Assembly: GCA_036172245.1 (NCBI GenBank)
Contig: JAYWIR010000155.1
Span: forward strand, 1-58,395
From: Raillietiella orientalis
Lineage: Eukaryota
DNA: 58,395 nucleotides
Reading direction: 5' to 3'
This document shows positions 1 through 38,220 of this stretch, piece by piece; the first letter of the stretch is position 1, and every line of letters starts with the position of its first letter. The position numbers and the translations under genes were made by a program. The notes beneath the pieces are model-generated. The model was not told the origin of the DNA. It did no database searches and worked only from the letters and a program-made list of their open reading frames with translations.

Positions 1-300
1 CGCGTTGCAGGCTGCTACGGCGGGCGTGCCAGGACACGAGCTCGGCAATGGGGCCAGAGTCACCCTTTACGCTCTCAGCACCAACTCATAGTAGGTGCTG
101 AAGAGCAGGGGGCTGAGGCTATCTCCCTGCCTTATGCCCCGCCGCTTTGGAACGCCATGCACCTTCTGACTGCTGAAAGAGACGGAAATTATCCCATGGC
201 GCCAGCAGGAGCGCAGGTAGTTGATCAAGGAGGGTGGGAAGCCCATGCGACCCAGGAGCTCCAACAAAAGCCCCTGGTCAACACAGTCGAACGCCTTGTG
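1..300 (-). pseudogene. Host non-LTR ORF2 fragment (RT domain), interrupted at HKAFD by element A1
   Basis: Minus strand encodes HKAFDCVDQ...RRGIRQGDSLSPLLF (RT motifs). Homology stops abruptly at 300. Confidence 0.9.
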
Positions 301-394
301 CGCTCCAGGGTGGACGTGTTTTCTCGGTGCCCCTCGTGCCAGGAAGTCTCCCCCAGTTCAAGCGTCGTGTGGTTCGGTGGTCGATCAGGCAGCG

Positions 395-2069
395 ATGCCT
401 GACGCGACCACCAGGGATGGCCAGGGGGCAGCGGCAACGCCGCCCCCAGAGGCGATGGAGAGCCAGTGGGAGGAGGCAACGTCGCCCATAGAGGCGATGG
501 AGGTGGGGGCATCCGCCCCCACAGAATCGGTCCCCGCTTTAGCGCGGGCGTGGAGCGCCGCTGTGTCGGCTCCATCGCCCGCAGCCGAGGCGGAATTGTC
601 GGCCTAAGTGGAGGAGGCGTACATTTCTTCATTTTTCTACAAGGTAGGCAATTTATATTCTTTAGAGATCGCCCGCGCCTTCTAGAATGGCATGCGCGCT
701 CTCGATGTGAAAGAGGAAGAGCTTAGCGCTATGACCATCCGCAGAGGGGATCAGTACGTTAAGGTCATCTGCAAACGTGCAGAGCTGGCCCAACGACTGC
801 TTAAAACCCCCGTTGTGATGAAGACGCGCAGGCTTCTCCCCACTACGGCGGATCGCAGCATGGTGGTCCACCTGATAGGCGTGACCGCGCGAATGCGCAA
901 AGAACAGTTTCACGCCGCTTTGGAACAGTTTGGAACGGTCCACGCGCAGTGGACGAAAGTAAGTCCTTTCGAGGACTACACGTGGCTCCAACACGGCCTT
1001 ACTGCTACTCGCGTGACCGTTCGGGAGGGCTCCACTCTTCCCACAAACTGGTGGTCGAAGGCGAAACCGTCGACCTCTGGTATGTGGGGAAGCCGAAATA
1101 CTGTGGCTTCTGCAATACTTCGGGCCACCTCAAAAAGAGGTGCCCCAATGTGCAGTGACAAGTATGCGGCACAATGGGCCACACGAGGGAGGTGTGCCCA
1201 AAAGCAGCAGTGTGGGTGGTTACCAAGAAAAACCTTAAAAAACGCGCCCGGCTCCTGCAGAAAAGACTGGCGGCGAAACTGCCGCGAAGGCTGTGCCACC
1301 CGCGCCCAAGACCCAAGCCGCACCCGAGACCCTGGCGACCAACGCCGAAGAAGTTGAGGGAGCCGGCCAGGAGACTCAGTGGCAAGTGGCAACGGCCAAA
1401 AAATCAAAGAAGGAGAGGAGGATTGAAAAGAAAATCGCCTATCAACAGAAGATCAAAGAGCAGGGTAGCACGATAAATAAAGAGTGCAGCGTCGTTGTTA
1501 AACGCGTTCTCGATGTTGCCGAATGCTGCCGGAAAGAACTCGCCTCTACCGACGACCTCTTCTCTGTTGACACAGTCAATAGCGAATGGAGCGAGCCGGC
1601 GACAGCGTCCGTCATCGATACCACCATCGATGACGTAGCCTTCGCGCGAGCCGCGGAGGAGCTGGCAGCCTCGTTGCAGCCAGAACCCTCCAAGGCTGGT
1701 AAGAAGGCCGTAAGGCGTCCGGCCTACCCTCAGGAGTCCCCCACTTCCGACCTCGAGGTGGAGGCCGGAAGCGCAGCCCCTGTTTCCACGGCACCGCGCA
1801 AGAAGGCTAGACGTAATTTCACAAGGCCTAGGAAGCTCGTCTCCCCCGTCGAAGGGGAAGAGTTGGCTTCCGCAAGCGAGGGTGCCATGAGCGTAAGAGA
1901 CTCTCTGGACCCGTCGCCCGAGAGACTCCCACGCGCGGACACGGAGAGGATGGAGGGGGTGGAGGACGAACAGGTGCATCAGGTGCCTGAGAACGCCAAA
2001 ACCCCCATGGACATTCCGCCCGCCTCGCAAGAGGAGGGCTCTCCCACACCTTAATCTTCCCAGCAGTAA
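395..2069 (+). pseudogene. A1 ORF1, gag-like zinc-knuckle RNA-binding protein (stops and frameshifts)
   Basis: CGFCNTSGHLKKRC knuckle followed by a second degenerate knuckle. Pieces lie in ORFs 221-607, 692-1357, 949-1158 and 1293-2054. The in-frame TAA at 2067-2069 overlaps the ORF2 ATG. Confidence 0.85.
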
Positions 2070-5000
2070 TGCCGGGAATCTCCTCCCGCCGTCGTCTGCG
2101 CATCGCCGTTTGGAACGTGAACGCCATGACAGACGCCGGCTGGAGACGAGACATGGTCGCCCTTCTCGAGTCCTACCACCTTGCGCTGCTGCAGGAGATC
2201 CACGTGATCTCTGCAAAACAAGCGCAAGAGATCGAACGCATCTCCGGAGAGTGGCTATGGTACAGGTGTGGGAGAGCGAAGGGTTGCGGTGTCTCCTACC
2301 TGCTTCGGCCAGTCGTCGAGGCCGCGGCTCGGGGCGTGCGGTTCGACGATCACGGTCGTGTCGGCCAGCTGACTCTCAGGTGGTCCGACTCGATCGATCT
2401 GATCGTCACGAACGTGCACGCACCGAGCGGCGCGGACCTGATGACCAGGAGGGCGAGGAAAGAGTTTTTCCTTGCCCTCCATCGCGACTGGTTGACCGAG
2501 GCAGGCGTGCGGAATGCCCATCTGGTTGCAGGCGATTTTAACGTTCGTCTGAAACCGCATGGGCCGAATCACGAGCGTGACCTGGTCAACGAGGTGTGCG
2601 CGGCGGTGCACACTTGTAATTTGTTGGCCAGTGTACCAGGGATGGAGGACAACATCGATCACGTGTTCCTTGACGAACACCTGTGCACTCGTGTGGGCAG
2701 GCGCTGCAAGTTGCCGTGCGAGTTGTCCGACCATCGACCAATCGTGTTTGAAATCCATCCGCGCGAGAGGGGCCCCCCCTCGTCAGCGTGGCGTTTGCCA
2801 AGGGACTGGCAGAAGCTCCCGGACGCGACGGAACATCTCCGCACGTTTATACGGAGCTTTAGGATGCAGACATTTCAGGATTGGGACCGCTTTAAACGGT
2901 CGGTCCAGGAGTTCTGCGACCAGTTCCCACTGCGCCGCCTACCTGCAAGATTTGGGGACGGGTTACGTAACGAACGGGCCTATCTGCAGGCTCGCCGTTA
3001 CGCCAGGATCCCCGACATCCGCAGGCTGGCGGAATACAAAGGGGGAGCCGAAAGGCAATCCTGGCTCTCAGGATCAGACAGCTTGCTGGACGACCAGGGC
3101 CGGGAGCATTCGGCACCCGCTCAGATCCGCGGTTTGCTGCGGCGTTTTTACTCCTCCTTGTACGCAAGAACGCCTCCCGAGCGGAATTTCTCACGAATCC
3201 TGCTTTCGAAAGGCGCTCCTGCGATCTGTAAAGAGGAGAAAAAGTCCGTCGACGAGTCTTTCACGATGGGCGAGATCATCTCGGCCATCGGAAAGCTCAA
3301 GAGGCAAAAGGCTCCAGGGGAGGACGGCCTGTCCGCGGAGTTTTATCAAACTAACGCGGCTGAACTAACCCCCCTGGTACATCAACTCACCTTGCTGATA
3401 CGCGAGACAGGTGACGTTTCCGCCTCGTTTCGTTCGGCAAAGGTGCGGCTTCTCCCTAAGGGAGGAGATCTGAGGAGCATGAACAACTGGCGTCCCATCA
3501 CAATAGTGAATGCGGATGCCAAGTTGATAGCTAAGGTTTGGGCTGAGCGTTTGGGACGGGTTGCAAACGCCTTCATCAGCCCGGAACAGACGTATGCTGT
3601 TCCGGGGCGAAGCATGGAGGCGAACCTGTTCCACGCTTCCACCTGGCTAGGGCTCCAACACGAAAGCGGCTTGATGCGAACAGGGAATTCGGGTAGTCCG
3701 TCATTCATGCGACGGATGTTCAAATGGTGGAGGGAGCACTTGCGGTCGCTGTCGACTTGCGAAAAGCATTCGATTGCGTAAACCAGAATCTGCTGCTGAA
3801 GCTTTTGGAACGCTTGGGCTTCCCGGCCTCATTATTAACCTATCTGCGCTCTAGCTGGCGCGATTCGCAAATCAATGTAACTTTCAGCGGGAATATTGTT
3901 CACGGCGTGCCGGTGCGACGTGGGATCCGGCAAGGAGACAGCCTGAGCCCCTTGCTTTTCAGTACCTACTTTGAGTTTGTACTGAGAGCGTACAGGGAAA
4001 CTCTGGCGCACCTGCCGCCTGAATGCGCCGGAACGCCTGCGGTTTCAGCATATGCAGACGACCTCCTGCTACTGCTCTCTATGTCCACCCCGGCTTCGGC
4101 GGTCGAGAAGTTCTTCGAAATGCTGAATCGAGGAACCGGGCTTACGGTGAACAGGGCGAAGTCGTCCGTGATAGCAGTTGGTGCGGCGTGGGCAGGGCAG
4201 CAGCACTGGTTCCGTTTGGGGATCCTCACGGTGAGGTACTTCAAGTATCTTGGTGTGCCGTTGTTGGACTACTCCCCTGCGGAAGCGTGGTCCGGCTGCC
4301 TTCAAAAAGTAGAGACGGCGATCAACCCGCTCCGAGGCGGCAGGTTTTTCCTGCCTGAACGGGCCGCGGTTTGGAACATGTTCGCGGCTCCTGTCCTCCG
4401 TTCCCTGCTGCTTGTTTGCCCCCCCACCGAAAGGATCAAAAAGCGGACGAAGGTCCTCCTCCGTATCGCCGTTTGGGGCAACAAGAGGCCCCTAGTCCGC
4501 CTGAAGGACTTGCGCGCTCCGTGTCGGGACTGTGGTCTCGGCCTCCTTACATTGGAGCGGCTGGAGCTGCATTTCCAGTTCTGGATTTTGGCACTTGTGC
4601 CGGAGTTGTGGTGCACCGGTTGGTGCGTCCCTGCACTTCTCCTCCTCCAGCAAACCACCGGCAAGACGGGACTTACGTCGTTTCTTGCACTCCATCGAAG
4701 CCGCATCAACCGATGTGGGCTTCAGCTACGGAGGGTGGTTGCGCTGGCAAGGAGAAATCAAGGATGGATCACCTGTCTCCCCGCGAACGGTAGTGCCTGG
4801 TTGCAGAAAACCGTTCGTACGTGGGGACAGTTCGGCATGCAACCCTCCCATCAGGAACGAAGGTTCCTGTTTGGGTGTTACAGAAGTTGCACGCTCCGTG
4901 AGATCCTGGAGGATCATAAGAAGAGAGCGTGGTCAGGAAGAACCCTCCTCGCTGCTGCGCTGGACTCCCTAGTGGAACATCAGGACAGCGATGCTGCGGC

Positions 5001-5515
5001 GAAGTGGGAGGTTACAATCAAAATCTCCGGGAAGGAGAAGAAGCAGAGAGAGTGGAAGACGGGCCAGCTAACTGATGCTGCAACCCCGAGTACGCCTCCT
5101 AATGGACTTCTGCGCTGGGGAGCGCTGCTGTATGTTCCGATTAAACATGTGAAGTGGCCCCCGATTCCTATGAACACTTTCATCCTCCCCCTAAAATGGC
5201 AACAGTTTCCCGTTGCAGCACTGGGGACTACCCTGCAACGCCCGTCGACACCACTGGACTTGGGGAGCGGTGGATCCCAATTGTGTAAGGTGCGGGGAAC
5301 GGGAGTCCCTCCCGCACCTCCTAGTGGATCGTGATGCCCTTCGGCCCCTTTGGTTCCGCTTTGCCGCGGCCATCGGTATCCCTTGCAGCAACCCCAGGGA
5401 CGCACTAAAAGCCTTCTTCGTTGCCGACGCCCTGCGGCCAGCGTCCTCGATAGCAGCCTTGTGCTGCCTTCGAGGGATCGTCGCCGCCTGGAGCACGGCG
5501 ACGGGAGGACAGAGA
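2069..5515 (+). pseudogene. A1 ORF2: APE endonuclease, reverse transcriptase, C-terminal zinc finger (frameshifted)
   Basis: APE motifs WNVN, LQE, AGDFN, IDHVF, SDH. RT motifs KAPGEDG, WRPIT, DLRKAFD, GIRQGDSLSP, YADD, KYLG. Zinc finger CVRCGERESLPHLL. Frameshifts near 3720 and 5210. Confidence 0.92.
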
Positions 5516-6361
5516 GAAGATGATGAGCGGCTGGACCATGGGAGAGTTGACAGATGCAACGACCCCTAGTCTCCAGCCGCGTGGATTCAGAAGATGGGGC
5601 GAGCTGCTCGGCATTCGATTGGATGACCTGAAGTGGCCCCCGGTTCTACTTGGATCCAGGATTCTCCCCCTGAAGTGGCAAGAATCGGCGCTTCTGTGGC
5701 TGCATTGGGGTCTACCCTGCAACGCGCGCCGCTTCCACTGGACGCGGTGAAGAGTAAATCCTGCGTGTGCCAGGTGTGGGAAGCGGGAGTCGCTCTTATA
5801 CCTCTTAGTTGAATGCCATGCCGTCGAGATTCTTTGGGATCGTCTGAAAACGGCCCTCCGGATACCGGATGGTGGCAATGTTGAATGTATCTTCAGTCTT
5901 GTCTTCGTGCGGGACGCCCTCAGTCCAGCCGCAGCCCTGGCAGCACTTTGCTGAATTCGTGGTATCGTGGCGGCCTGGAGTGATAACGAAGATGAAGACT
6001 GCATCGTGAGGGACGTCATCGAGTGTGCTTCTCGCTTCCTGCAGAGAGCTACCCGATGGCCCCACCTAGGAAAGCTGAAAATGGAACTAGAAGGCATCCT
6101 GCAAAGGATGGGCGCTCCCAGCAGTTTTCTGTGATGTCTTCCCGGCCCTCCAAACTTTTTTTTTTTTGTGGTATGTTTTTCTGTTCTAGTTTATTTTTGT
6201 TTTTTCCCCCATCCCCCTCCACTGCCGAGAAGAGCCACACCGGGCTGCGTCCCGGTGTCCCGGCAGTTCCGGCATTCCGTGGCCGTCAGTGGGGCCTTGT
6301 ACCACGTTCTGTATTGCCCGTTGAAATGTTTTTTAATAAACGTTTCGGCGTATCCGGGTGG
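5516..6361 (+). mobile_element. B-type ORF2 C-terminus plus 3' UTR and terminus, fused to A1
   Basis: A second copy of the KWPP/LKWQ/CARC region resembles B3 from 19220 onward. It is followed by a T-rich 3' UTR and an AATAAA-hairpin end at 6335-6361. Confidence 0.8.
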
Positions 6362-6380
6362 CATCGCCGAATCCCTTGGC

Positions 6381-7160
6381 GAGTGGACGTGTTTTTCCTT
6401 CGCTCTCGAGTGAGTTAACAGGAAGAGGTTTTTTCTCTGTGTGTGTTCGTGTGGAACATCGTTGGTGTGCGATGGCAGCGATGTCTGAGGACACCACAAT
6501 AGAGGTAGGTGTGGGGAGGCTTGCCCTCCCTTACAGCCTACAGAATCAGAAGCGTCCGCCCCGGAAGCGCCCTCGCCGCCCAAGGCGAGGAGCTGGAGCG
6601 CCATGGTGGCCGCGCCGAGCGCGGAAACTAAGGTTGAGATGGCGGCCTACCGTTCAGCTGGGTACAAGCCCAGCTTGCTGTACCAGGTAGGTTTCTTATT
6701 TGATGGAAAAACGGCAAGCGCGTTTTCGAAAGCGCTCCAAAACGCCGGAGTTAAAGAACAAGATCTTCACGGCCTGTCCGTTCTCAGCGGAGGTCAGCGA
6801 GTCGAGGTGGTGTTCAAGGAGATCACCTTGGCTCAAAGTCTGATCACCAACCCGTTGAACGTCGACGGCTGCAAGATCCTGCCGGTGACGATGGACCGCT
6901 CCGTGGTGGTCCATTTCACTGGAATCACGAGTTGTATAACTCGCTCTGCGGTAGAACAAGAACTTCGAAAGTTCGGCGAGGTGCTCGCGCTGTGGCCTGA
7001 GCCAACAATCTTTAAAGGCTTCAATAGCCATTTCGGAGGCCAGGCTGAAGCGCGGGTAACCGTTAATAAGGACTGTGGGCTTCCCCACTAGCTGGAGGTC
7101 GCGGAAGAGGGCGTGGACCTCTGGTACGTGGGAAAGCTTCGGTATTGCGACTACTGCGAC
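6381..7160 (+). mobile_element. Copy B1: 5' UTR and N-terminal ORF1, truncated at the first zinc knuckle
   Basis: GGACGTG at 6385. ORF 6603-7091 (GYKPSLLYQVG...DRSVVVH) is homologous to the other ORF1s. Confidence 0.85.
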
Positions 7161-9437
7161 CTGACCTAGACGCGAAGCGAATAGCCCGACAAGCAAATTG
7201 GCGTCCGTATTCACAAAAGTTATCAGACGCCAGTTGTTCAGATTTCTGAGATCTCCTCCTTTCGAAAGAAGCGTCACTCTGGCTGTCGGAAAGGAGGCGG
7301 GAACATCGCATTCGTCTCCGATCAGCCTGATCAACTTAAGCAGCAAGGGTTCCAGCTTTTCTGCGAAGCTCTAAAAGAACTCCGCGGGCAAGCCGTCTTC
7401 CCCAGGAGCTTTCCACCTCTTGAGCCTTTTGATACCGGGGAGAATTTCTACGGTGTTAAGATGCTCGTCGAGGCTTAACGATTATTCCTCCTTCGTTATC
7501 GAAGCATCAAACGGAAGAAAGCGTCGAGAGGCATCTTGATCTGAGGGCGCCGTGGAGTAAAGGGAATTATAATCACCACGCACGAGATTAAGTTCCGACG
7601 CCGGAGACGGACATTTCTTGCCGTGGCCGTCCAGAAAGCTGTTCAATACGGATTGCCATGCTTAAAGTTCGGGCCCGGCTCGGTAGTGGTCCAGGCGACG
7701 GACATCAGGGGTTCTCTCTTTCTGACGGGCCTGTCAATAGACTCGATGGTTGCAAGGACCATCGTCGAACCCTGGAGGCAGGCGTCCCAGAGAAAACTGC
7801 TCGCAGAACTCCCGGATCGAGGCCTTAAACAGGTCTTAACCCTCGAATACCGGGCCGAAGGTTGCAAGGGCCCTCGAGAAATCCCGGGGGCGGGCGGTTA
7901 AAGCGAACTGCTCGCAGAACATCCGGACGGAGGCCTTAAAAAGGTTTCAATTCCAAAGACTCTTGAGCGTGACGCCTTTCAGGAATTCATGAAGGTGTTC
8001 CTATGCTGCTGAGAGTCGCGTTCAGTCCCCCGGCACACGACACTCCCTGGATGGAGGTCTGTTGTTGCGAAACCTCATCTCGAAATTTAGCCGGGAATGG
8101 TCCGACAGCGTCGACGCGATCTTCCCCCGTTTGCCGGCCCGTGAACACAAGTGAGCGTCCAGGAAGACGTGGACGATGTTGCGGACAATTCTTTCACCTG
8201 CAAACAGGTTCAGCACACGCATGGCGCCGCAGAACTCGTTCATCGCGTTCTCTTGTGTTTCATGTTCACCAGTTCGCAGTCGAAGATTGAGAACTCCTGT
8301 TATCAGGTGAGCCTTTCGCACGTTCGTGTTCGCCACACAGTCGCGTTCCAGGGATTCAAGCAGCCTGGTACGGTTGCTATATCCCTTTTGACCGGTATGG
8401 GCGTACACATTCGTGAAGATCAGATGGATCGAGACGGAGCAGCCGAAAATCAGCTGAGCAACCCGATCGACGTCATCGAAGCGCACGCCTTTCACGGCAG
8501 CGTCGATGGCTGGCTTGACGAAGAACGCGACTGCGCAGGTGTTGCGGAGGCCGCATTGCCGGTACATCCCACCCCCCGCGATCGACTTGATCTCCTGGAC
8601 GTCTGCCGCGAAGATCACGTGGATCTCCTGCAGCCGGTCAGGTTGAGTTCATGCAAAGTGTCGGCTGTACCTCGCCTGTTACCGTCGTCGCGCACCCCGT
8701 TGACATTCCAACAGGCCGCGCGGATCCGACGGCGACTGGCGAGCCCACGTTGTACTCCGGGAAAAGTGGCAGTCCGGCGTCCGCCACCTACCAGGGCAAG
8801 ATGCTAGGTGGAGGAGGAGGGTCAGGTGGTGAAGGCACATAATCCCCCTCCTGCATGGGTAACAGCGCGCCGAGCGCTGTTACCGATGCAGGTGGGGTCG
8901 CACCTATCTGTTGACCCTCCTTAATGGAGGCGGGCTGTTCAGGGTCGGCGACTGCAGGGAGGACTTTACCTACCTGCTCACCCTTCACCATGGGGTGGCC
9001 TTCTCGACAACTTCGGAACGTTGGAATTCCTCCTTTGGGGTTCCCACGCTGGCGACGGCTTCCGTGTCCTCCTCCTCGCTGGAGGAGGGGAAGCACCTCC
9101 TGGGCTTCTGGGACTTGCGTTGCGACTTTCTAGGGGGTGCCTTGGAGGAGGAGGAGCTGCTTCCGGCATCTAGGATTAACTCACCTGAAGAGGCCTTCTT
9201 TGCAGGATCCGGCTTTCGTACGGCCTTGCGCGAGGGGTTCTCCCGCTCGGCCAGCGTCACCGCGAGCTCCTGTGCCGCCTCTGCCAATGCGACGTCCTCT
9301 ACTTCGAAGAACGCGTCGCGCAGCTCACCCTCTGTGTAAACCGGAGGTTCGCAGTCGCGAGCCTTGGGCGCAGCGGAAACGGCGAGGGGAGGCTCGTCGC
9401 TCCAGGTGGCAGCCTCGGGAACGGCGATGCGTTCGAT
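7155..9437 (-). mobile_element. Copy B2 internal fragment: ORF1 C-terminus (9437-8755), APE and RT N-terminus (8750-7155), degenerate
   Basis: ORFs 8985-9443, 8022-8618 (APE) and 6696-7346 (KGGDLRNLNNWRLIT). Confidence 0.85.
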
Positions 9438-9885
9438 TTTCACCCAAATTTCTCCAAGTCGTTTATTGAAAAATAAACTTTATAATGAAATTATGTATGG
9501 CTGTGGGAATGCTCCAGCCAGAAGCGAAGAACCACAGAGCCTGTCAATTCACCGGTTCCTAGACCGGTATGGTCCACCAAGGCAGCAGGGGAAAAGGAAA
9601 AAACCAAAAACTAAACAAAAAAGACAAAGGGTGGGAGGGAACGGGAAGGGATCACTGATGCTGCTGGGGCCGCATCATGCCTCTCAGGATGCAGGCAAGC
9701 TCTTGTTTGATGTGAACATCCAGGTGGGGCCATCGCGACGCCCTCCTCAGGAATTGGGAGGCGCACTGGATGGCGTCCTGATCGCTAGGTCCTCCCGTCG
9801 CAGTGCTCCATGCGGCTACGATCGCACAAAGGCAGCACAAGGCTGCTATCGAGGACGCTGGCCGAAGAGCGTCGACAACGATGCA
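9438..9885 (-). mobile_element. A1-type 3' end fragment (ORF2 C-terminus, 3' UTR, terminus)
   Basis: Encodes DALRPASSIAALCCL...ASRWPHL. A degenerate AATAAA-hairpin end lies at 9467-9438. Confidence 0.85.
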
Positions 9886-11479
9886 AGATTCCAGTTTCTG
9901 AACACCCCTAGCAAACAACGGTTAAGAGCACTCTTAACGACTCTGGCGTCGGCGAAGGCTGTCAGACGGTACAGGCGAGAAGAAAGCCCTAGAGTACCGA
10001 ACGAAGCAAAAGGAAAAAGAAAACGCAGCGCAAAAAACCGTGCCGCGAAAAACTTCGCGCTTGTACGGTAAAAATAGAGCGTGTGGAGTCACTCGCTGTC
10101 GCCACCGGGGGAGCAATCTCCACCCTCGAGTCCGCCGAAGCGGCGACGGACGATGGCGAACCATCTGGAAGGAAAGAGGAGGAACTGAGCGCCTCGCTCG
10201 ACGCGATCGAGGAAGCCGCCTTCCAGCAGGCGGTGGAAGAACTCGAGGCAGAACTGCAAGGCCTTGAGAAGGACACTCGGAAAGGCTTACGAAGGCCGGC
10301 CGCGAGGAAGGCTCCGGAGGTAGGTGAGGCCGATCCGGACGGCGAAAGTGCGTCCTCTTCAGCGAAGGCGCCACCAAAGGAGACGGGACGTAAGTCTCAG
10401 AATCCCAGGAGGCGCATCCGGATCAATAAGGAGGCGGATGGATCCGCCCCCGAAGGGGAAGCCGGCAGCGTGGGAGGCGAGTTTGGGAAGCTCTCATTTC
10501 TAGACACCGTGCAGCTGGCGACCCCCATGGATGAGGAATTACAGGTGGGTGAAACCCCCCTTCCTCTGCACGGCCCTGACGAAGACTCGGCCTCAATGGA
10601 GGAGGGAGTAGCGGAGCGCGACGCACCCCCTCCTCCCAGCGTCCCACCCGACAAGGTGGCAGGTGCTTTATTGCCTCTTTCCCAGGATTAACACCTGGGC
10701 TTGCCTGTCGTTGTACGATCCGCGTAGCCTGCTGGAACGTCAACATGCTGCGCGACGACGGTAACAGGCGGGATACGGCCGACACCCTGCGCGACTTTGA
10801 ACTGGCGCTCCTGCAGGAGATCCAAGTGTTCTCCGCGGAGAACGTCCAGGAGATCGAGAGGATCGCAGGAGGTCGTCTGTTTTTGCAATGCGGCGCTCGC
10901 AACACCTGTTGCGTCGCCTTCATCATGAAACCAGCAGTCGTTTCCTTCGAAAAGGACGTACGCTTCGACAACGACAGTCGGGTTGACCAGCTCATCCTTA
11001 GGTGATCCGACTCGATCGACGTTGTCGTGACCAATGTGTACGCTCCGAGCGGAGGTTGCGGGTACAAGGAAGGTTCCCGGTTCCTTGAATCCCTGAAGCG
11101 CGACTGGCTGACGGATACAAACGTGCGCAAATTGCATCTGATCAGTGGCGATTTCAACATTTGCCTGGTCTCAGGTGTGCCATTCGGGAAAAAAGACGCA
11201 GTTAACGAGCTGTGCGCTGCTATGCACACGCGCGACTGGTTGGGGGACCTACCGTAAATGGTCCAAAGCGTGCACCACGTCTTCCTTGACTCCAACCTGT
11301 GCCCACGAGTCGGCAGACGAGGGAAACTTTCGTCGACGTTATCGGACGATTTCCGGTTGATATTCAAGGTTATGCCTCGCGACAAAGGACCACCATCCAG
11401 GGCGTGGCGTCTGCCCGGCGACTGGACGCGCATCTCAGGTGCGGCGAAACATCTACTCCAAGTACTAAGAGGCGTGATC

Positions 11480-11493
11480 CTCCGGAATCTCCA
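11480..11493 (+). repeat. Target-site duplication of A2 (left copy; right copy at 17027-17040)
   Basis: Exact 14-bp direct repeat CTCCGGAATCTCCA. Confidence 0.95.
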
Positions 11494-11706
11494 TTGAAAC
11501 CCGGGTGCGCCGGGACGTTCATTCTCACGAATAAACTTATACAATCTGTGACTGGACCAGTAGTCCAGCCACGCCCTGGAAAGATATAGCCTGCCGGGCT
11601 ACCGGTGCGCAGACCGGCGCGGTCGACCTCGGCAGCAGAGGGGAGGGGGAACGAAACAAAAAGAAAACAAATAAGAAACAAAAATCAGGGAGGGAGCGAA
11701 AAGATA

Positions 11707-14700
11707 TCACAGTCTGCTGGGAGGGTTCGTCATCCTCTGGAGGATGCCGGCAAGCTGTTTCTGCTTGTGTGGTTCCAGATCGAGCCATAGCGTCGCCATC
11801 CTGAGGAAACGGGCGGCATACACGTTGGCATCCCTGTCGCTAAATCCTCCCGTCGCTTGCTCTATGCCACGAAGATCCCGCGTAGGCAGCACAGGGCTGC
11901 AAGCGAGACCGCTGGAGGCAGGGCGTCACGGACGAAGTGGGGGCGCAAAGCGTCTCTAAGGTTGCCTCCGGGGATCCCCAGGGCTGCGGCAAAGCCTTCC
12001 CACAAGGGACGGAGGGCAACATAATCCACTAACAGGTGGGGGAGGTATTCCCTCTCCCAGCACCTGACACAATTAGGGTTGACACCCCCCCGCGTCCAGT
12101 GGTGTCGGCGGGCGTTGCAAGGAAGCCCCCAATGCAACAATATCAGTGCCGACTGTTGCCACTTCATAGGGAGGGTGCGCGAGTCCATGAGCACCGGAGG
12201 CCACTCGAGATGTTCCTCTGGAACATCCAGTAACTCTCCCCAACGGAACAGTCCATTTGGGGTGGTCGTCGGGATCGCAGCGTTGGTGAGCTGACCCGTT
12301 CTCCAATCTCCGATCTTCTTTGCCCTCTTGGCGATCTTCACAGTTACCTCCCATTGTGCCGCGACGTCGCTGCCCAGATGTTCCCGTAGGGTAGGCAGTA
12401 CCGCAGCAAGGGAGGTTCTTTGTGCCCACGCTCTCCTTCGGGGATTCTCGATGATTCCTCGGAGCGTGCGGCCGTCATGCGGCCCGAACAGAGCTATTCG
12501 CTCGTGTTGCGTGCTCTGCTCCTGAATCATCGCCCACGTGCGGACGGTTTCCTGCAACCAGGCAGGACCGTCCGCGGGGCGTACAAGGATCCGCGCCGAG
12601 TTGTTCTTCACGAGCTTGGCCGCCCTCCGAAGTTGAAGTCCGCAGTGGCAGATGGGGCTTCGGAGTGCAAAGTAGGACGAGAGTCCCGCATTGCCGGTGG
12701 CCCGCTCGACGAGGAGACATGCAGGGAGGCACCAAGGGGTGCACCAATTTCCTGCCATAAAGGCAACAACTCGGAACTGGAGCTGTAGCTCCAGTCGCTC
12801 CAACGTCAGGAGGCCCAGACCACCATCCCGACGAGGAGCGCACAAGTCCGAAAGACGGACTCGGGGCCTCCCTCTGCCCCAAAGGGCGATCCTCAGGAGG
12901 TCCTTCGTCCTCTTCTTTGACTCCGCTGAGGGGGAGCAAACAAAAAGCAAGGGGCGCAGGAGGGGGGCCGCAAACGCGTTCCAGGCCGCGGCCCGTTCCT
13001 GCAGGTAGAACCTGCCGTCCTGGAACGGGCCGATCGCCGCCTGAGCCTTCTGAAGGCAGCCGGACCACGCTTCCTCAGGGCAGTAATCCCCCAACGGCAC
13101 ACCAAGGTACTTGAAGTACCTCACCGTGGGGATCCCCAAACGGACCAGTCCTGCTGCCCTGCCCACGTCGCTACGACTGGCATTACGGACGACTTCGCCC
13201 TGTTCACCGTCAGTCCTGTTCCACGACTCAGCAGGTCTAAGAAGTCCTCGACCGCCGAGGCCGGGGTGGACATAGGCAGCAGCAGCAAAAGATCGTCCGC
13301 GTATGCCGAAACCGCAGGCGTACCGGGGCAATCGCACGTCAGGTGCGCAAGAGTCTCCCTGTACGCTCTCAGCACCAATTCGAAAAAGGCGCTAAAGAGC
13401 AGGGGGCTCAGGCTGTCTCCCTGCCGTATGCCGCGTCGCACCGGTACTCCGTGCACCGTTTGCCCGCTGAAAAGAACATTAATGAGCGCGTCGCGCCAGC
13501 TGGATCGCAGGTAGGCCAACAAAGAGGCCGGGAAGCCCAAGCGTTCCAGAAGCTCCAGCAGGAGATTCTGGTCGACGCTGTCGAATGCTTTACGCAAGTC
13601 GACAGCGACCGCAAGTGCTCGCTTCCCCACCCGACCGTTCCGTCTCCCGCCAACGGACGCACTGGAATTCCGGCTGCTCAATAAGCCCCTTCCTTGTTGG
13701 AGCTCTAACCATGTGGAAGCGTGGAACAGGTTCGCCTCCATACTTTGCCCGGGAACAGCATATGTCTGTTCCGAGCTGATGAAGATGTTGGCGACCCGTC
13801 CCAGACGCTCTGCCCACATCCTGGCTAGCAACTTGGCGTCCGCATTCACTATTGTGATGGGACGCCAGTTGTTCATGCTCCTAAGGTCTCCTCCCTTAGG
13901 GAGGAGCCGCACCTTTGCTGAACGAAACGAGGTGGGAACGTCACCTGTTTCGCGGATCAGCAAGGTGAGCTGATGTACCAGGGGAGTAAGCTCTGCCGCG
14001 AAAGTTTGATAAAATTCCGCAGGCAGGCCGTCCTCCCCTGGAGCCTTTCGCCTCTTGAGCTTTCCGATGTCCGAGATGATCTCGCCCATCGTGAAAGGCT
14101 CGTCGAGGTTCCTTTTCTCCTCCTCCCCGATTGCTGGAGCACCTTCCGGAAGCAGAAGTCGTGAGACAGCCTGCTCCGGAGGCGCCCTGGCGTACAGGGC
14201 GGAGTAAAATTTCCTCACTATCCCGCGTTTCTGAGCGGGAACCGAGTGCTCCCGGCCCTGGTCGTCCAGCAAGCTGGCCGAACCGGATTGCCAGGCTTGC
14301 CTCTGGGCTCCCGCTCGATACTCTGCTAACCTGCGCATGTCGGAAGTTCTCGCGTAACGTCGGGCCTGAAGATAGCGCCTTTCGTTACGCGGCCCCTCCC
14401 CAAATCCCGCAGGTAGGCGATGCAGAGGGAACTGGTCGCAGAACTCCTAGACCGACCGCTTGAAGAGGTCCCAGTCCTGAAGTGTCTGCATCCTGAAGCT
14501 CCGAATAAACGCGCGGAGGTGCTCCGCCGCGTCGGTGAACTTCAGCCAGTCCCCTGGCAGACGCCACGCTGACGAGGGGGGGCCCTTGTTGCGCGGACGC
14601 ACTTCGAACATAATCCGACCATGGTCCGACAGCTCGGATGGTTCCTTGCCGCGCCTGCCCACCCTAGAGCATAGTTGCTGATCAAGGTACACGTGATCGA

Positions 14701-15283
14701 TGCTTTCCATGGCCGTGTCCCCGGCCAACAAGTTGCGCGTGTTCATTTCTGCGCACAACTCGTTGACGCGGTCGTTCAGTGTATCCGGCGCACCTGAAAG
14801 CAGGCGCAGATTGAAATCACCTGCGATCGGGTGCGCTTTGCGAACTCCTGCATCGGTCAGCCAATCGCGTCTCAGGGCAAGGTAGAATTCCCTTCTTGCC
14901 TTCGCCTTCAACGCCTTATTTTTGCTAGGAGCGTATAGGTTGGTGACTACCAGGTCGATAGAGTCGGACCAGCTGAGAGTCAGCTGACCGACGCGACCTG
15001 CGTCATCGAACCGAACGTCCTTTATTGCGGCGTCGATGGCTGGCCGAAGCAGGAAGGCGAAACCGCTTGATTTCGCGGTGCCGCAACGCCACAACAGCCG
15101 CCCACCCAAGATACGTTCGATCTTCTGGGCTTGATCTGCGGAGATCACGTGGATCTCCTGCAGCAGCACCAGGTCGAAGGATGCCAGGGTGGCGGCCACG
15201 ACACGCCTCTTGCTGTCGTCGCTTAGCCCGTTCACGTTCCAACAGGCGATCAGAAGACGACGCCGAGAGGCGATTCCCGGCAT
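11707..15283 (-). pseudogene. A2 ORF2 (APE-RT-zinc finger) with a stop and frameshifts
   Basis: ORFs 14447-15283 (APE), 13121-14338 (RT, YADD), 11862-13337 and 11707-11892. Confidence 0.92.
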
Positions 15284-16941
15284 TATGGCTGGGAAAGTGG
15301 CGTCGCGGCACCTGCCGCGGGGCAGGTGTAGGAAAGGTCCATCGGTACGAGGACCATCGGAACGAGGACGGAGGCCTCTTCAGGCGCCTGGGGTACCTGT
15401 TCGGCCTCCATCCTCACCATCTCCTACGTGTACGAGCGTGGAATTCTCTCGGGCGACGGGTCCCGGGAGTTTCCCACGCTCATGGCACCCTCGCTACCGG
15501 AAGCCATCTCTTCCCCTTCGTCGGGGGAGACGATCTTCCGGGGCATTGTGGACTTTCGTCCTGCCTTTTTGCGGGGTGCCGCGGAGATGGATGCTGTGTT
15601 TCCGGCCTTCAGCTCGGGGTCGGAAGTGGCCGACTCCTGAGGGGAAGCCGTACGCCTGACGGCCTTCTTGCCAGCCTTGGGGGCAACCGGCTGCAACGAG
15701 GCAGCCAGCTCCTCCGCGGCGCGCTCGAAGGCGACGTCATCGAGCGTGGGCTCGATGACGGACGCCGCCGCCTCGCTCCCCTCCTTGTTGACTTTGTCAA
15801 CGGAGGGTTGATCAGGGGCAGCAGCGAGTTCTTCAGCGCCGCATTCGTCGATGGCGGGAATCCGCTCTACAACGACGCAGCAGCTTTTAATTTTATCGCG
15901 GCGCAGAGCGGTTTCACTCTGTTTCGCCACGTTGTTTACCTTCTTATGGGAGTTTTTCTTGGGGTCGACCTTCTGCCACCCTGGCTCTTGACCCTCGCCC
16001 TCGACCTTTTCGGCGTTTTTCGCCGAAGTCTCGGGTCTGGCCTTCGCCTTGGTGGCGGAGGTGATCTTTTTAGCAGCAGCACGAGCTGGCAGCTCCTTTC
16101 TCTTTTTTGCCGCGCGCTTTCTCGCGTTTTTCGCGGACACGACGCGGACTGTGTTTTGGGGGCACACCAGACTGGTGTGCCTGGCTTGTTTGCATTGCTG
16201 GCACTGCACGCTCGGACACCTCATTTTAAGGTGACCAAAGCTGCTGCAGCAGGCGCAAACCTTGGGTTTCCCCACGTACCACACGTCAACGGATTCACCG
16301 TTGACGGTGAGTTTGTGGGGAATCTCACATCCCTCGCGAACCGTCACTCGCGCTGCACGCGGGCCGCCAAGCAACCCATCGTAATCGACAAAAGGAGTAG
16401 GCTTTCCCCACAGCGCGTGGACAGTTGGGAATTTTTCCAATTCGTTCCGGACGGCCTCCTCCGTCATCCGGAACGTGATGCCGGTCAGGTGAATGATCAC
16501 CGATCGGTCTTCAGTTATTGGGAGAAGCCTCCGGCTGCCCATACATGCAAGGGTTCGCAGAAGTCTCTGCGCAAGAGGTGCCTCCTTGCAGATAACTTCA
16601 ACAAATTGACCCTTGCTTCTGACGGACATAGCCAGAAGCTCCTCTTTCTGTACGCCGAGAACGAGCATCGCCTGTGAGAAGGCGCGCGCGTTCTTGGGAG
16701 AATATAGACCGCCTACCTTATATAGAAGGGGTGGGTTATGCCCCTCCTCCAGGTAAGCGCGCATTCTCGATATAGCTGCTGGCGTAGGTGCCGCAGCCAC
16801 GGCGTTCCAAGCCCTGGGTAGGGCCGGGGGCGCATCCGTGCTGGCGGGAGCCTCCACTGATGCAAGAGCCCCCATCTCCATCTGCTCCGGGGGCAATGAG
16901 GTCATCGCCTTCGGATCCTCACCGGTGGTGGTATCAGGCAT
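15283..16941 (-). pseudogene. A2 ORF1, zinc-knuckle protein (505 aa open, then premature stop)
   Basis: ORF 15424-16941 contains CACCSSFGHLKMRC and CQQCKQARHTSLVC. TAATG stop-start at 15285-15281. Confidence 0.88.
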
Positions 16942-19900
16942 TTCTGCCTAATCCTCCACCCACACCACGCACAAGCACCAACGGAAATGGAACTCAGGAG
17001 CAACGAAAAGACACGTCCGCTGGACGCTCCGGAATCTCCAGGACTGGGACCCCATAAAGGCCTCGGTCCGCGAGTTCTGCGAGGAGTTCTCTGTGCACCG
17101 CCTTCCCCGGGGATTTAGTGAGGAAACATGCAACGAAGGAACGTATTTGCACTACCATCGTTTCGCGAGGACCCCTGACATCGGTCGCTTGCCGAGTACA
17201 ATGCCTGGGCCAAGCGTCAGGACTGGCAAAACCGGGCCGTCTTGCGTGCTGGACGACCTGGACCAGGAATACTCGGACCCGGCATCTATACGTCGCCTGG
17301 TGCGTGGATTTTACTCCTCTTTACGCCAGGGTACCTGCTGAGTGGGACGTCTCGCGGCGCTTGCTTCCAGATGGAGCCCCGGCCATAGGGCAGGAAAAGA
17401 AAGAAAGCCTTGACGATCCTGTTACGACCGATGAAATCATCACCGCTATTAAAAGGCTCAAGAAACGTAAGGCGTCAAGAAAGGATGGCCTGCCGGCGGA
17501 GTTCTTGGAGTGCTTCTTTGCAGACATGACCCTCCTGGTGCTCCAATTGACACAACTGATCCGAAACGAAGGCGATGTTCCCGCTTCGTTTCGGTTAGCC
17601 AGGGTGAGGCTCCTTCCTAAAGGAGGAGACCTTAGCAAATTATGCAACTGGCGTCCGATCACGATTGTGAACACGGACTCCAAGCTGCTGGCTTAACTGT
17701 GAGCTGCGCGTCTGGGGCGGGTAGCCGACAGCTTCGTCAGCCTGGAACAGACGTACGCTGTCCTCGGGCGAAGCATGGAAGTGAACCTGTTCTTTGCCAG
17801 CACATGGTTCCATGTGCAACGCGAGAAAAATCTAGAAAAAAAACGGAATTTCGACAAAGATGATTGGAGGGCGCCAGCGAAGCAAGTAAGGAACGACTAA
17901 GAAAAGAAGAGGGCTCTAGCGATCGCATTCGATCTGCACAAAGCGTTCGATTGCGTGGACCAGAAACTTTTTCAGGAGCTTCTAAATCGCATGGGCTTCC
18001 CGGACACCTTAACGGCCTACCTGCGCGCCTGCTGGCGCAATGCGAAAATCAACTTGTTTTTTAGAGGACAGCACGTGTTAGGCGTGCCGGTGAGGCGCGG
18101 CTCCTGGCAGGGCGACAGCCTTAGTCCACTGCTCTGTAGCACCTATTTCAAACTGGTGCTCAGAGCATACAGGGTGACATTGGCTGGCCTGCCAAGCTCG
18201 TGTCCAGGGACGCCGGCCGTGTCGGCGTATGTTGACGAACTTTTGCTCCTGCTGCCCATGTCAGCCCCGGCTTCGGCAGTCGAAGATTTCTTCGACTTGC
18301 TGAGCCGTAAGACAGGATTACGGGTGAGCAGAACCATGTCATCGCTGGTTGCGGTTGGTGCAAAGTGGGCAGGACGACCTGATTGAATTTGCCTGGGGAT
18401 CCCCACGGAGAGGTACTGGAAGAACCTCGACGTTCAGTTAGGGGACTTCTACCAGTCAGAAGCCTGGTCAAGTCGTCTCCGAAAATTGTAGTCAGCGATC
18501 GGCCCGTTTCTGCAAGGCAAGCTTCACTTGCTGGAACGGGCTGCGGTGTAAAACGCGTTCGCAGCCTCTTTCCTTCACCCTCTGCTTTTTGTTTGCCCCG
18601 CATCCCGTGAACTGAAAAAAAGAACAAAGGACCTTGTACGCAACGCCCTGTGGGGCGGCCGGAGGCCTCGTTTGCCTTTAAAGGATTTGAGCTCTTTACA
18701 TCGGGACGGAGGTCTGAGCGTCCTCACGATGAAGCGAATGGAAACACAACTGCGGTGGCGTACTCTAGCCATCGCAGCGAAAATGTGGAAAACGTCTTGG
18801 TGCGTGCAAGCTTGCTCGTTCGCTAGACCTGTGTCCGAGACTGAAGGACTTGCGTCTTTTCTTCTGTGCAGCAGCCGTAAAATAAGAAGATGCGAACTTC
18901 TCCTGGGACGCATGGTCACCCTGGCGAAGGAGAACGGGTAAATGGCCTGCAGCCCCGCCAACTCCAGCGCATGGCTAGAAGAAACAGTTGGAACGTGGGC
19001 AAAGTTAAAAGACATCAGTAAAGAATCCTGCAACCGCCTGCGCACAGGCATCTACACCCGCTGTATGCTGCGAAACATGATGGTGTGTCCCGCCAGAAGA
19101 ACTTTGGCGGAAAAAACTCCACTGGCCACGGCGCTGCCCTTCCTACGAAGGGCGCTTCAAAACAGCCGGAAGCCGAGATGGCAAGATTCCTTCCAGATAG
19201 CGGGCAAGGAGAAGGATCTAAGCGGGTGGACAATGAGGTGACTGGCAGACGCCACAACCTCAAGCGTTCATCCGCATGAAATACGGAGATGGGGTGAGCT
19301 GCTTGGCATCCCGGCGGATGACCCAGTGTAGCCCCTGTTATTTGGAGACGCATCCACTCTCCTCCTCAAGTGGCAGAAAACGGCGCTGTTGTTGGTGCAC
19401 TGAGGTCTTCCTTGCAGCGCGCGCCGCCATCCCTCCCCCATCTGTTAGCGGACTGCGCTGCCCTCCGGCTTTTTTGGGAACGTTATGCTACGACCCTCTC
19501 TATGCCGGACGGCAGTACCCCTAGAGACGCTGTGAGACTCCTCTTCGTGCGAGACGCCCTGTCACCAGACTCAACACTGACAGCGCTCTGTTGCCTCCAA
19601 TTTATTGTGGCCGCCTGGTGCGGAGCCAACAGAGGAAGCAGCGACAGGGACCCCATCGTACACGCGCGTCGCTACCTGCGAATCGCAATTTGCTTGTCCC
19701 ATCTGGGAGCTATGACGAGGGAACTCGAGGGTTTCCTGGAAAGGATAGTCTCTTCCTCTAGCTGGTTGTGATCCCTTCCCGGCTCATCAAATAGTTTCTT
19801 TTTGTTATTTGATTTATTTTTTTTTTGTTTTACCCCCTATCCCGTCCGCTGCCGAGAAGGACAAGCTGTACGCAGAACCGGCTTCCTGGCAGGTCCCATA

Positions 19901-19977
19901 GAATTATGGCCGTAGCGGGACCTGATACCGTAATGTAAAGTGTTTTTTAATAAACGCCCCGGTGTGACCAGGTGAAG

Positions 19978-20700: not shown

Positions 20701-21800
20701 GTTAATAGGCCGGTCTTTCTCCTCTGCGAATGGACCTTAAATTACTTTTCTGGCCGCAAAATGTTGCCAGCCCTGTTCCTTTTCCATTACTGCGGAAGGT
20801 TTAGCTTTTGGGGTTTTGCTTCCGGAGGTTGAGGTGCTCGCAGCTTCTGCCGGCCACCTTCCGCCCTAGGTCTTGCGACCTTCAAGTCACGTTTCCCCTG
20901 CGCTTCCTTGGCGGCAGGGGAAACCGCAGTGGGGCGCTTGCGGCACACAAGCCGAATGTGGCTTTTCTTCCAGCACAGGTGGCACTGTATGTTAAGACAC
21001 CTCTTACGGAGGTGTCTTACGGCATCACAGTAGCCGCAATATCATGGTTTTCCCACGTACCAGAGATCCACGCTCTCCAGCGGGACCTTTAGTTTGTGGG
21101 GAAGTTCACAATTCTCTTTTGCGGTGACCCACGCTGCAGCCTGACAACGAAAAATGCTATTGTAGCCGTCGAAAATAATGCATTTGAGCCACAGTGCGTG
21201 CACCTCGCCGAACTTTCGGAGTTCTTCTCCGACCGCAGAGCGAGTCATGCGGCTGCTAATGCCGGTCATGTGGACCACCACGGAGAGATCCATTGAAACC
21301 GGCAAGATCTTTCGACCGTCAACGTTTAGCGGAGCATGGATCAGGCGGTGGGCCAAGATGACGTCTTTGCACACCATCTCGACCCACTGCTCGTCGCTGA
21401 GGACGGAGAGTCCGTCAAGATACTTTCCCAGTATGTTCGTTTTTTGCAGTGTGCTGCTAAAGGCGCGTTCAGTCCGGCCTTAAACAAGTTGCCTACCTGG
21501 TAGACGAGCGATAACTTGTACACGGATGCTTTGTATGCGGCCATCTCCGCCATGGCTTCCTCGCTGGGCGCTGTCACCAAGGCGCTCCATGTCCTCTACG
21601 TGGCCAGGGATGACTCCGAGGCGGATGCCCCTAATGCTGCAGGCTGCAAGGGTGGCCATGCCTCCCTCACGCCTACTTTCATCGCGGTGTCTTCGAGCTT
21701 CGTAGCCATCGGAGACCGACGATGCACACAGAACAACATACACAAGAAAAAACTCTTTGCTACGACTCTTTTGGAAATGAAGGAAAAACACGTCATTCCC
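20701..21800 (-). mobile_element. B-type copy: 5' UTR and ORF1 N-terminal half with knuckles, degenerate
   Basis: GACGTG at 21794-21789. ORFs 21341-21580 and 21042-21377 (DLWYVGKP). Confidence 0.85.
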
Positions 21801-22006
21801 ACCTTCCTTGAGGGGGCTGGCTGCAAAGAGGCAGCCAGCTCCTTCGCCGCTCGCGCGAAGGCTTTGTCATCGATGGTGAGGTCGATGACGAACGCCGCAG
21901 CCGGCTCCCTCCCCTCGCTGTTGACAGAGTCAACAGAGGGGTTGTCGTTCGTAGCGGCAAGTTCTTTCTTGCAGCAGTCAGGAATACGCTCCACGATAAC
22001 GCTGCA
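21801..22006 (-). mobile_element. A-type ORF1 remnant between two insertions
   Basis: CSVIVERIPDCCKKELAA...AFARAAKELAASLQPAP matches A1 1485-1690. Confidence 0.8.
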
Positions 22007-31348: not shown

Positions 31349-32305
31349 ACCTCGTCGCGCAAGGGCGTACGCAGGTCGGCTCCGACGAAGAAGGCCCCCG
31401 CAGGTAAGTGCGACCTGGGGGCAGGAAGCGCATCCTCCTCCTCGAACACACGCTCCAGGAAGTCGGGACGCAAGTTCCAGAAACCCAGGAGGCGCCTCCC
31501 CTCGAACAGCGAGAAGGAGAAGCCGGGAAGAAGCGGCAGCGTGGGAATCCTGGAAGGGGGACACCCAACGCCAGGCAGCCGCCGAGTCGGCCACCCCCAT
31601 GGAGGAGGGTGAGCAGGGGAGTGGAGTACTCTTTGCAGTCGCGGAACCTGAGCAGCCCTAACCCTTGGAGGAGGGCGAACAGGTAGGCGCGACTCCACCT
31701 GCAGGTGATCCGGCCGACGCGCCGGTACCGATGGAGGAGGAGGAACAGGTGCCTTCAGTACCTGTCCCCCCTCCCCCTCCACCTAGCGTCCTGCTTCAGC
31801 AGGTAACGGACGCCGCATCGCCGTTTTCGCTGGACTAACACCTGGGCTCGCCAGTCGCCGTGGGATTCGCGCGACCTGTTGGAACGTCAACGGGCTGCGC
31901 GACGACGGCAACAGGCGAGATACAGCCGACAGCCTGCGTGAGCTCGACCTGGCGCTGCTGCAGGAGAATTACGTGATCGCCGCGGCAGACGCCCAGGAAA
32001 TCGAGACGATCCCGGGGTGTCGGTTGTATTGGCGATGCGGCCTCCGCAACACCTGCGGGGTCGCGTTCTTCGTGAAGCCGGCCATCGACGCTGCCGTAAA
32101 GGGCGCGCGGTTTGATGACGACGGTCGGATCGGTCAGCTGATTCTCAGCTGGTCCGACACGATCGACCTTATCGTCACAAACGTGTATGCCCCTGCGTCA
32201 AACAGGGGTACCGCGACCGCATTAGGCTGCTGGAAACCCTGAAGCGCGACTGGCTGGCGGATACCAATGTGCGAAAGGCTCACCTGATAGCGGGAGATTT
32301 CAATC

Positions 32306-32330
32306 GAGTGTGGACGTGTTTTTCTTCGCT
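32306..32330 (+). promoter_or_regulatory. Conserved element 5' motif GGACGTGTTTT (representative copy), putative internal promoter element
   Basis: Present within ~12 nt of 13 5' junctions across groups A, B and C. Function is inferred. Confidence 0.5.
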
Positions 32331-32383
32331 CTCGACACCGTGCATTCATCCGCTTCATCTTGGCGTCGTACATTTTGACGACG

Positions 32384-37898: not shown

Positions 37899-38181
37899 TC
37901 ATTGCCCTACCCTCCATAAACTAAATTTGTATTTTCTTTTCACACCCGCGTCCCCATAGGCTCCGGAACATTTTAGATGCTCATCGTATTAATCCCCGTG
38001 AGTACGGAGCCTAACCAAAAACCCGTTACCCTTCCCTCCAGTTTTTGATTTTTGTTTGTTTCCCCTCATTCCCCCCACGCTGCGAGCGGTTTGTTTACCA
38101 GGCCTGCGTGCCGGTAATTTTTCTATATTCTCTGTCGTTCTCTTGGTTGAAAACATTGTCCCTGACCAGTTTATTATTATT

Positions 38182-38211
38182 AATAAACGCCCCGGCGTGA
38201 CCGGGTGATAA
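38182..38211 (+). terminator. Conserved element 3' terminus: AATAAA followed by a CCCGG-N5-CCGGG hairpin and a 2-4 nt A tail (representative copy)
   Basis: Ten recognisable copies occur at element ends. A role in 3'-end formation or RT recognition is inferred, not shown. Confidence 0.6.
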
Positions 38212-38220
38212 ATTTCAATC

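Follow-up and report, generated by a model that had tools for sequence, protein, structure and literature searches.

A-type LINEs adjoining the KAFD codons of other LINEs in a nested cluster of Raillietiella orientalis

A nested cluster of LINEs

The stretch of DNA analysed here (the window) comprises 58,395 nt, positions 1–58,395 of Raillietiella orientalis contig JAYWIR010000155.1, and all counts reported below are counts within this one window. The G+C content of the window is 57.4%. Intra-window repeats cover 51,935 of its 58,395 nt (89%), and Pfam searches together with a local tblastn map of the window showed that the repeats are APE-type non-LTR retrotransposons. Each element is built of an ORF1, followed by an endonuclease (Exo_endo_phos) and a reverse transcriptase (RVT_1), and ends in a Cys-rich region at the C-terminus. 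APE and RT are both present in ORF2, as indicated by the Pfam matches to Exo_endo_phos (4.1e-10 for A1 and 3.8e-13 for B) and to RVT_1 (8.7e-17 for A1 and 2.8e-22 for B). Matches to zf-RVT stayed under the Pfam cut-off (E values 0.0045 and 0.0081, 17–18 bits vs 27.5). ORF1 gave no Pfam match, and the translated ORF1 of A5 displays two CX2CX4HX4C knuckles.

In the protein search the sole close relative was P0001, a fragment with 66% identity. The named matches were a 'LINE-1 reverse transcriptase homolog' and plant L1-like proteins (23–31% identity), and the Atlas look-up returned generic APE/RT clusters. Judged by its domains and by these distant protein matches, the superfamily is assigned to the L1-like APE-type LINEs. 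Rfam, applied at the gathering score, found no family in the window and thus no 5′ ribozyme of a known family, and a tRNA scan of the window found no tRNA.

All lineages share a 5′ terminal core (...GGACGTGTTTTTC...) and a 3′ terminus of the form AATAAACGCCCCGGCG-nnn(n)-CCGGGTGAAAA without poly(A). The 3′ end of all lineages carries AATAAA, a short GC hairpin (CCCGG-loop-CCGGG) and GTGAAAA (e.g. at 45375–45405, 38182–38211 and 32306–32330). The A-type 5′ terminus reads CGCTCYAGGGTGGACGTGTTTTC... Terminus profiles located 13 5′ ends and 10 3′ ends. No fewer than four families are represented, with 13 complete 5′ termini. Each of the 13 5′ ends and each of the 10 3′ ends adjoins another LINE, so that the window is a nested LINE-only cluster, as known for Zepp and ZeppL. 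In the ORF1 tree clade A comprises A1, A5 and A4 (support 100/99), clade B comprises B and B2 (82/95), clade F four copies (100/99) and clade U the copies U1 and U2 (100/100), with V and W as sisters of U.

Neither intra-window repeats nor matches to LINE proteins are found in three segments (22963–23796, 53297–54106 and 57660–58395), the last of which ends A5 at position 57659. At 6335–6400 a spacer of 19 nt (CATCGCCGAATCCCTTGGC) separates the 3′ end of copy D from a true F-type 5′ end, so that elements of different families stand head to tail.

A-type junctions at the KAFD codons

The A-type LINE A1 (301–5511, plus strand), recognized by Pfam and by its ORF1 translation, is complete at its 5′ end and contains a 5′UTR, an ORF1 that combines an RRM-like part with two CCHC knuckles, and the APE, RT and Cys-rich C-terminal regions. 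The copy breaks off at 5511, roughly 350 nt short of the full 3′ end, and its alignments with the other copies end at 5509–5511. Upstream of A1 lies host H1 (1–300, minus strand), an RT fragment which extends from the H of HKAFD downstream and runs off the window (tblastn of 10–300 on the minus strand against the 3′ half of the A1 RT, aa 22–118, 71%). A similar arrangement occurs near the other end of the window, where A5 (56525–57659, plus strand), an A-type 5′ part made up of 5′UTR and ORF1 and 91.8% identical to A1, is followed by unrelated sequence. Its host, H5 (54409–56524, minus strand), is an RT gene extending from HKAFD to the 3′ end (tblastn 55250–56521, minus strand, aa 23–441), although the match to its 3′ terminus (54409–54465) is weak.

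The third A-type 5′ end belongs to A4 (49017–50455, minus strand, 5′ end at 50455), a deeper member of the A clade, of which the part from the 5′UTR to about aa 152 of ORF1b is present. Host H4 (50456–52619, plus strand) continues from RKAFD to its own 3′ end in a single frame (tblastn 50456–51916, aa 22–503), with the 3′ terminus motif at 52590–52615. The F-type ORF2 called F-left (44124–45374, plus strand; tblastn 44129–45378) extends from aa 184 of APE to ...HKAFD (GA), and is joined to an A-type 3′ part (45375–46349, minus strand) that comprises the C-terminal ORF2 and the 3′UTR, ends ...AATAAACGCCCCGGCGAAATCCGGGTGAAAA and is 84% identical to A1. In the tree of the RT 5′ part F-left groups with the F-type copy E5 (100/99).

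The first-pass annotation had described four junctions between A-type elements and antisense RT codons, and all four strings were found where it had placed them. Junction 1 (286–310) reads GTCGAACGCCTTGTG|CGCTCCAGGG and junction 2 (56510–56534) reads GTCGAACGCCTTGTG|CGCTCTAGGG; at junction 3 the host sequence from 50456 onward is CGTAAAGCTTTCGAC, and the 3′ junction (45361–45385) reads CATAAGGCGTTTGAT|TTTCACCCGG. Pfam and tblastn identified the flanks as RT genes that run antisense to the A-type element. The host RT begins with the H/R codon of (H/R)KAFD, from its first base, at each of the 5′ junctions (300/301, 56524/56525 and 50455/50456), and at 45375 it stops with ...HKAFD. A-type LINEs thus adjoin, in antisense orientation, the (H/R)KAFD codons of other LINEs. 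A degenerate pattern composed of antisense KAFD and the A-type 5′ end (at most one mismatch) had three matches in the window and none in each of 100 shuffled sequences.

The further suggestion that the four junctions lie in four different hosts is correct for the number of junctions, but the hosts may be only three, because 45375 and 50455 are ordered and oriented as the two ends of one insertion. These positions flank complementary halves of a plus-strand ORF2 (F-left, 44124–45374, and H4, 50456–52619), and the sequence between them is colinear on the minus strand, with an A-type 5′ part, an F-type element, a U-type 5′ end and an A-type 3′ part. On the simplest view of this geometry, 45375 and 50455 may be the ends of one A-type insertion that was rearranged later. 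Identity of the candidate duplication pair (45361–45374 and 50456–50469) was dropped as proof of a single event: 10 of the 14 positions are identical, the same as between the unrelated hosts H1 and H4 (10/14).

Target copies of 14 bp are found at 287–300 (H1), 56511–56524 (H5), 50456–50469 (H4) and 45361–45374 (F-left). Both sides of the A-type insert keep these 14 nt, though on no proven single copy. A target-site duplication (TSD) of about 15 bp had been proposed; retention of a short KAFD-codon block on both sides was borne out, and the length is better given as 14 bp (CAYAAGGCGTTYGA) by analogy with the B-type elements described below. At the 3′ junctions of B and B2 a T follows the host sequence ...CA or ...GA. 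As the host's own next base, read from the other flank, is G, the T belongs to the element (terminal ...AAAA or ...CAA). At 45375 the A-type 3′ end is preceded by CATAAGGCGTTTGA, and by the same reasoning the T after ...GA most likely belongs to the terminal GGGTGAAAA of the element. A 14-bp A-type TSD, CAYAAGGCGTTYGA, deduced across junctions of separate copies, is therefore more likely than one of 15 bp.

The window contains two A-type 3′ ends, one at the KAFD site and the other at a look-alike octamer. The latter belongs to X (9437–9894, minus strand), whose 3′ end lies in the ORF1 region of an F-type element and is preceded by ...GATGCGTTCGA (9426–9436). Its uninserted paralogue, at 47855, has the sequence GATTCGTTCCAG and runs on without a break. 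The end at 9437, located at the octamer GCGTTCGA in ORF1, looks like an off-target insertion.

LINE 5′ inversions are common, and the partner of the A-type 5′ end was always an RT piece in inverse orientation, as would be produced if twin priming, 5′ inversion or template switching had joined an inverted RT piece to the element as a by-product of integration. Such an origin is hardly credible here: the sense part is full length from the true 5′ end, which leaves no upstream RNA to be inverted, the partner RTs come from other lineages and are only about 68–71% identical to A1's own RT, and the break falls at one fixed base across three lineage combinations.

The annotation had also noted, by eye, that the host flanks at junctions 1 and 2 are more diverged than the inserts, and had taken this as favouring independent insertions. 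Alignment confirmed the difference: the flanks (1–300 vs 56225–56524) are identical at 206 of 300 positions (68.7%), the inserts (301–1432 vs 56525–57659) at 1039 of 1132 (91.8%). The unequal divergence, however, applies to junctions 1 and 2 (68.7% vs 91.8%) and not to junctions 2 and 3, where host (76.1%) and insert (75.5%) are equally diverged. This equality, together with alignments that cross the junctions and with the presence of duplicated composites elsewhere in the cluster (20747–21971 vs 47962–49182, 72.6% for the host and 75.6% for the insert), is what would be seen if a single ancient insertion, a composite of an antisense RT fragment and an A-type element, had spread by segmental duplication or 5′ transduction and had later undergone gene conversion.

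Substitution patterns argue against such a history. Host differences fall on the three codon positions as 124, 103 and 190 between H4 and H5 (417 in total, p=3.6e-7) and as 25, 22 and 47 between H1 and H5 (94 in total, p=0.0026), and this excess at third positions needs selection on an intact RT. Hosts must then have separated as working elements before each break. An RT broken by an antisense insert could not diverge under codon constraint, which disfavours duplication of a composite also for junctions 2 and 3. The ORF1 of the inserts shows the same bias, with 34, 33 and 84 differences between A5 and A4 (151 in total, p=3.9e-8) and 15, 12 and 29 between A5 and A1 (56 in total, p=0.012). In the RT tree H1 stands apart from H4 and H5, which form a group. 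With the contrast at junctions 1 and 2 (68.7% vs 91.8%), these results make spreading of one ancient composite quite unlikely. The reading of the junctions as independent insertions is upheld by the identities at junctions 1 and 2, by the codon-position excess and by the position of H1 in the RT tree; at least three independent A-type insertions have occurred at one base.

Sister lineages at other ORF2 blocks

Element B (11494–17026, minus strand) is a complete B-type LINE, which lies antisense at the LRNLQDW codons of the APE–RT linker of host C (halves at 10652–11493 and 17027–19976). Its TSD is perfect over 14 of 14 bp (CTCCGGAATCTCCA at 11480–11493 and 17027–17040). The second B-type LINE, B2 (24774–29722, minus strand), occupies the homologous codons, IRELEDW, in host G (halves at 23941–24773 and 29723–29863), which is unrelated to host C, and has a TSD of only CTTGA. 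Hosts C and G are about 53% identical and fall into different families in the APE tree, whereas the inserts B and B2 are 64–68% identical. Both ends of both B-type copies are thus at the LxDW site (2/2). B and B2 form a pair in the APE tree (97/96), outside of which A1 stands on a long branch. Host C with the B element that it carries (9895–19976) is itself a 5′-truncated element, which lies antisense within the A-type copy X; about 150 nt of X are gone between the flanks (target deletion).

U1 and U2 (32306–44123, plus strand) are U-type LINEs that lie in tandem, in the sense direction, at the codons for GDFN (GGAGATTTCAATC) in an F-type APE. The 9-bp target is found before, between and after the two elements, as ATTTCAATC at 32297–32305 and 38212–38220 and as ATTCCAATC at 44124–44132. 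A third U-type 5′ end, U3 (46341–46700, minus strand, in the interval 46341–46709), is located in a different F-type copy, again at this GDFN site. In the comparison of U3 the hosts are identical at 838 of 999 positions (83.9%) and the inserts at 358 of 370 (96.8%). All three U-type 5′ ends are at GDFN (3/3). The F-type copy E5 carries an empty U-type target (8285–8294, minus strand), where the element is uninterrupted.

Two of the four F-type 5′ ends are located at one spot of A-type ORF1b, where host and insert are equally diverged. The duplicated composite mentioned above (20747–21971 vs 47962–49182) has 72.6% identity in the host and 75.6% in the insert. The twin composites (20747–22033 and 46702–50455, minus strand) consist of an A-type 5′ part extending to about aa 152 of ORF1b, a true F-type 5′ end and an A-type 3′ part. 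From their structure they may mark a fourth specific target or belong to an old family of chimeras, possibly non-autonomous.

The perfect 14-bp TSD of B, the 9-bp TSD of the U-type elements and the empty U-type site indicate that these elements are real TPRT insertions. They also bear on the reliability of the assembly. False joins at a shared conserved 15-mer could arise in a region of such dense repeats. One public DNA run (X1) holds 14% of the words of positions 1–3000; no RNA run is listed. At 80% likeness 431 of its contigs were placed on 44000–58395, seven at ≥99% and 42 at 95–99% identity. These contigs are short and no bridging of the junctions is visible among the matches listed; likewise, the layout of X1, among the matches listed (6 of 330 loose ends and 8 of 456 pieces), does not include the junctions. 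One joint connects 45215 to 56525 on opposite strands, but its short side has only 33 letters, and it gives no more than a hint of an RT without interruption. Against an artefact stands the fact that the A-type 5′ end has no RT homology, so that k-mer collapse could not make the join between antisense RT and 5′UTR. Moreover, a difference between A1 and A5 (C/T) appears as early as 6 nt beyond the junction and others follow along their whole length, which means that at least two distinct copies carry the join, and the B and U insertions have clean TSDs. We consider an artefactual origin of the junctions very improbable.

Target specificity and comparison with known LINEs

The explanation that we favour, and think likely to be correct, is that the A-type element is a target-sequence-specific APE-type L1-like LINE aimed at the (H/R)KAFD codons in the RT of other LINE lineages. 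All three full A-type 5′ ends in the window share the same base and the same antisense orientation. The link between lineage and site was strict: A-type elements are at KAFD (3/3 5′ ends), B-type elements at LxDW (2/2) and U-type elements at GDFN (3/3 5′ ends). A KAFD-like motif was present in 18 of 19 distant homologues and GDxN in 13 of 19. Being near-universal, KAFD would offer a target that is both durable and multicopy.

According to the mechanism that we envisage, the A-type target would be the codon block of approximately CAYAAGGCGTTYGA in RT genes of LINE lineages of the same superfamily. The 3′-OH at the target would prime cDNA synthesis on the 3′ end of the element RNA (...CCGGGUGAAAA, no poly(A)), and the insert would thereby come to lie in antisense orientation relative to the host RT. 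Second-strand synthesis would be primed from another nick, made in the opposite strand at a distance of 14 bp, between the Leu and His/Arg codons. The predicted outcome is a full-length copy starting from one fixed base and a 14-bp duplication of KAFD codons. The positions of the nicks and the role of the endonuclease as reader of the target are inferred. The split of A1 from B and B2 in the APE tree is what would be expected if the endonuclease set the site, with which it is correlated.

Nine RT KAFD sites were found by motif, and five of them are unbroken; those at 36010–36024 and 41922–41936 carry the identical 15-mer. Shielding of the A-type's own KAFD codons by synonymous changes was considered and rejected, as the occupied site of H4 (CGTAAAGCTTTCGA) is one base from B's own site and two bases from A1's own. 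Metagenomes scanned with the 19-mer of the A-type 5′ end yielded two loci, both of them chance matches in unrelated bacterial-looking sequence, and a scan of genome contigs for the 3′ terminus yielded none.

The same nest could in principle be produced by targeting at the level of clusters or chromatin, if elements homed to LINE clusters, a behaviour suggested for Zepp/ZeppL and, in centromeres, for Celine, and a loose TYGA nick preference combined with local DNA features to generate hot spots, KAFD among them. In keeping with this, 89% of the window is LINE and every terminus found adjoins another LINE. F-type elements and C, D, H4, H5 and V insert at varied places, and 12 of the 17 GCKTTYGA octamers are empty; the five occupied ones comprise four of the seven in KAFD context and one of the ten elsewhere. 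Such loose targeting does not fit the common base and orientation of all three A-type 5′ ends or the separate sites of the B (2/2) and U (3/3) lineages, and even the off-target A-type end carries the octamer GCGTTCGA. The pattern is also the opposite of that described for Celine, a LINE of poplar centromeres. In the passages available from that report, Celine inserts mostly in other retrotransposons and in itself, forming nests, by regional targeting, with a unique TSD for each copy (PMC11288735), whereas A-, B- and U-type copies share their site to the base. As the whole explanation, cluster targeting is unlikely. Besides the sequence-specific targeting of KAFD by A-type elements, regional targeting at the cluster level may also act.

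Sequence-specific LINE targets are known in rRNA, snRNA and tRNA genes, microsatellites, telomeres and one class of DNA transposons, and the TSD of R1 is 14 bp. According to the literature, APE-type target-specific families belong to the Tx1 and R1 clades. The A-type element resembles LINEs of these clades (R1, TRAS/SART, Tx1L, Keno) in having APE and RT in ORF2 and independent copies at one sequence in one orientation, and also in its multicopy target and fixed staggered nicks, the latter being deduced for the A-type. It is unlike them in that its target is the protein-coding KAFD block (GDFN and LxDW for the sister lineages) in ORF2 of related LINEs, which the A-type hits in antisense orientation. 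Full-text searches, outside Repbase reports and subscription papers, brought up no LINE whose target is a conserved motif in the ORF2 of other LINEs.

Tx1L, a LINE that inserts within the DNA transposon Tx1D of Xenopus, is similar in using another mobile element as its specific target. The class of that target, a DNA transposon, is unrelated to LINEs, whereas in the present cluster codons for catalytic motifs of rival LINEs are hit and each insertion inactivates a competitor. 'Transposons' are named as a target class of specific LINEs in PMC4640811. The nested organization recalls Zepp of Chlorella and Coccomyxa and ZeppL of Chlamydomonas, L1-like LINEs which occur almost only as clusters of nested copies; the clusters are described, in the passages seen, as 1.5–42 kb long and GC-rich (PMC3446292). 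As portrayed there, Zepp arrays consist mostly of 3′ ends of 5′-truncated copies of one family, unlike the several families, full-length 5′ ends, fixed codon sites and TSDs of the present cluster. Those passages give no sequence-level target for Zepp, and the comparison is one of descriptions.

A broader interpretation, to which we give slightly less than an even chance, is that the window holds a guild of sister LINEs, each with an endonuclease directed against a different universally conserved codon block of rivals' ORF2: KAFD of RT in antisense, GDFN of APE in sense and LxDW of the linker in antisense orientation. This would be hyperparasitism of LINEs on LINEs, in which purifying selection on the catalytic motifs of competitors keeps the target, hits kill competitors and the LINE-only nest builds itself.

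If these interpretations are true, a LINE that reads the catalytic-motif codons of other LINEs would represent a new kind of 'safe haven'. The target could not mutate away without killing its owner, it would be renewed by bursts of competitors, and each insertion would disable a rival. Three sister lineages with three motif targets would constitute a natural series for the change of APE endonuclease specificity, and their endonucleases would be candidates for programmable site-specific integration tools. LINE-only nests mark centromeres in some algae. For nested LINE-only clusters, such as those of the Zepp type, the insertions described here would provide a sequence-level mechanism by which a cluster builds itself.
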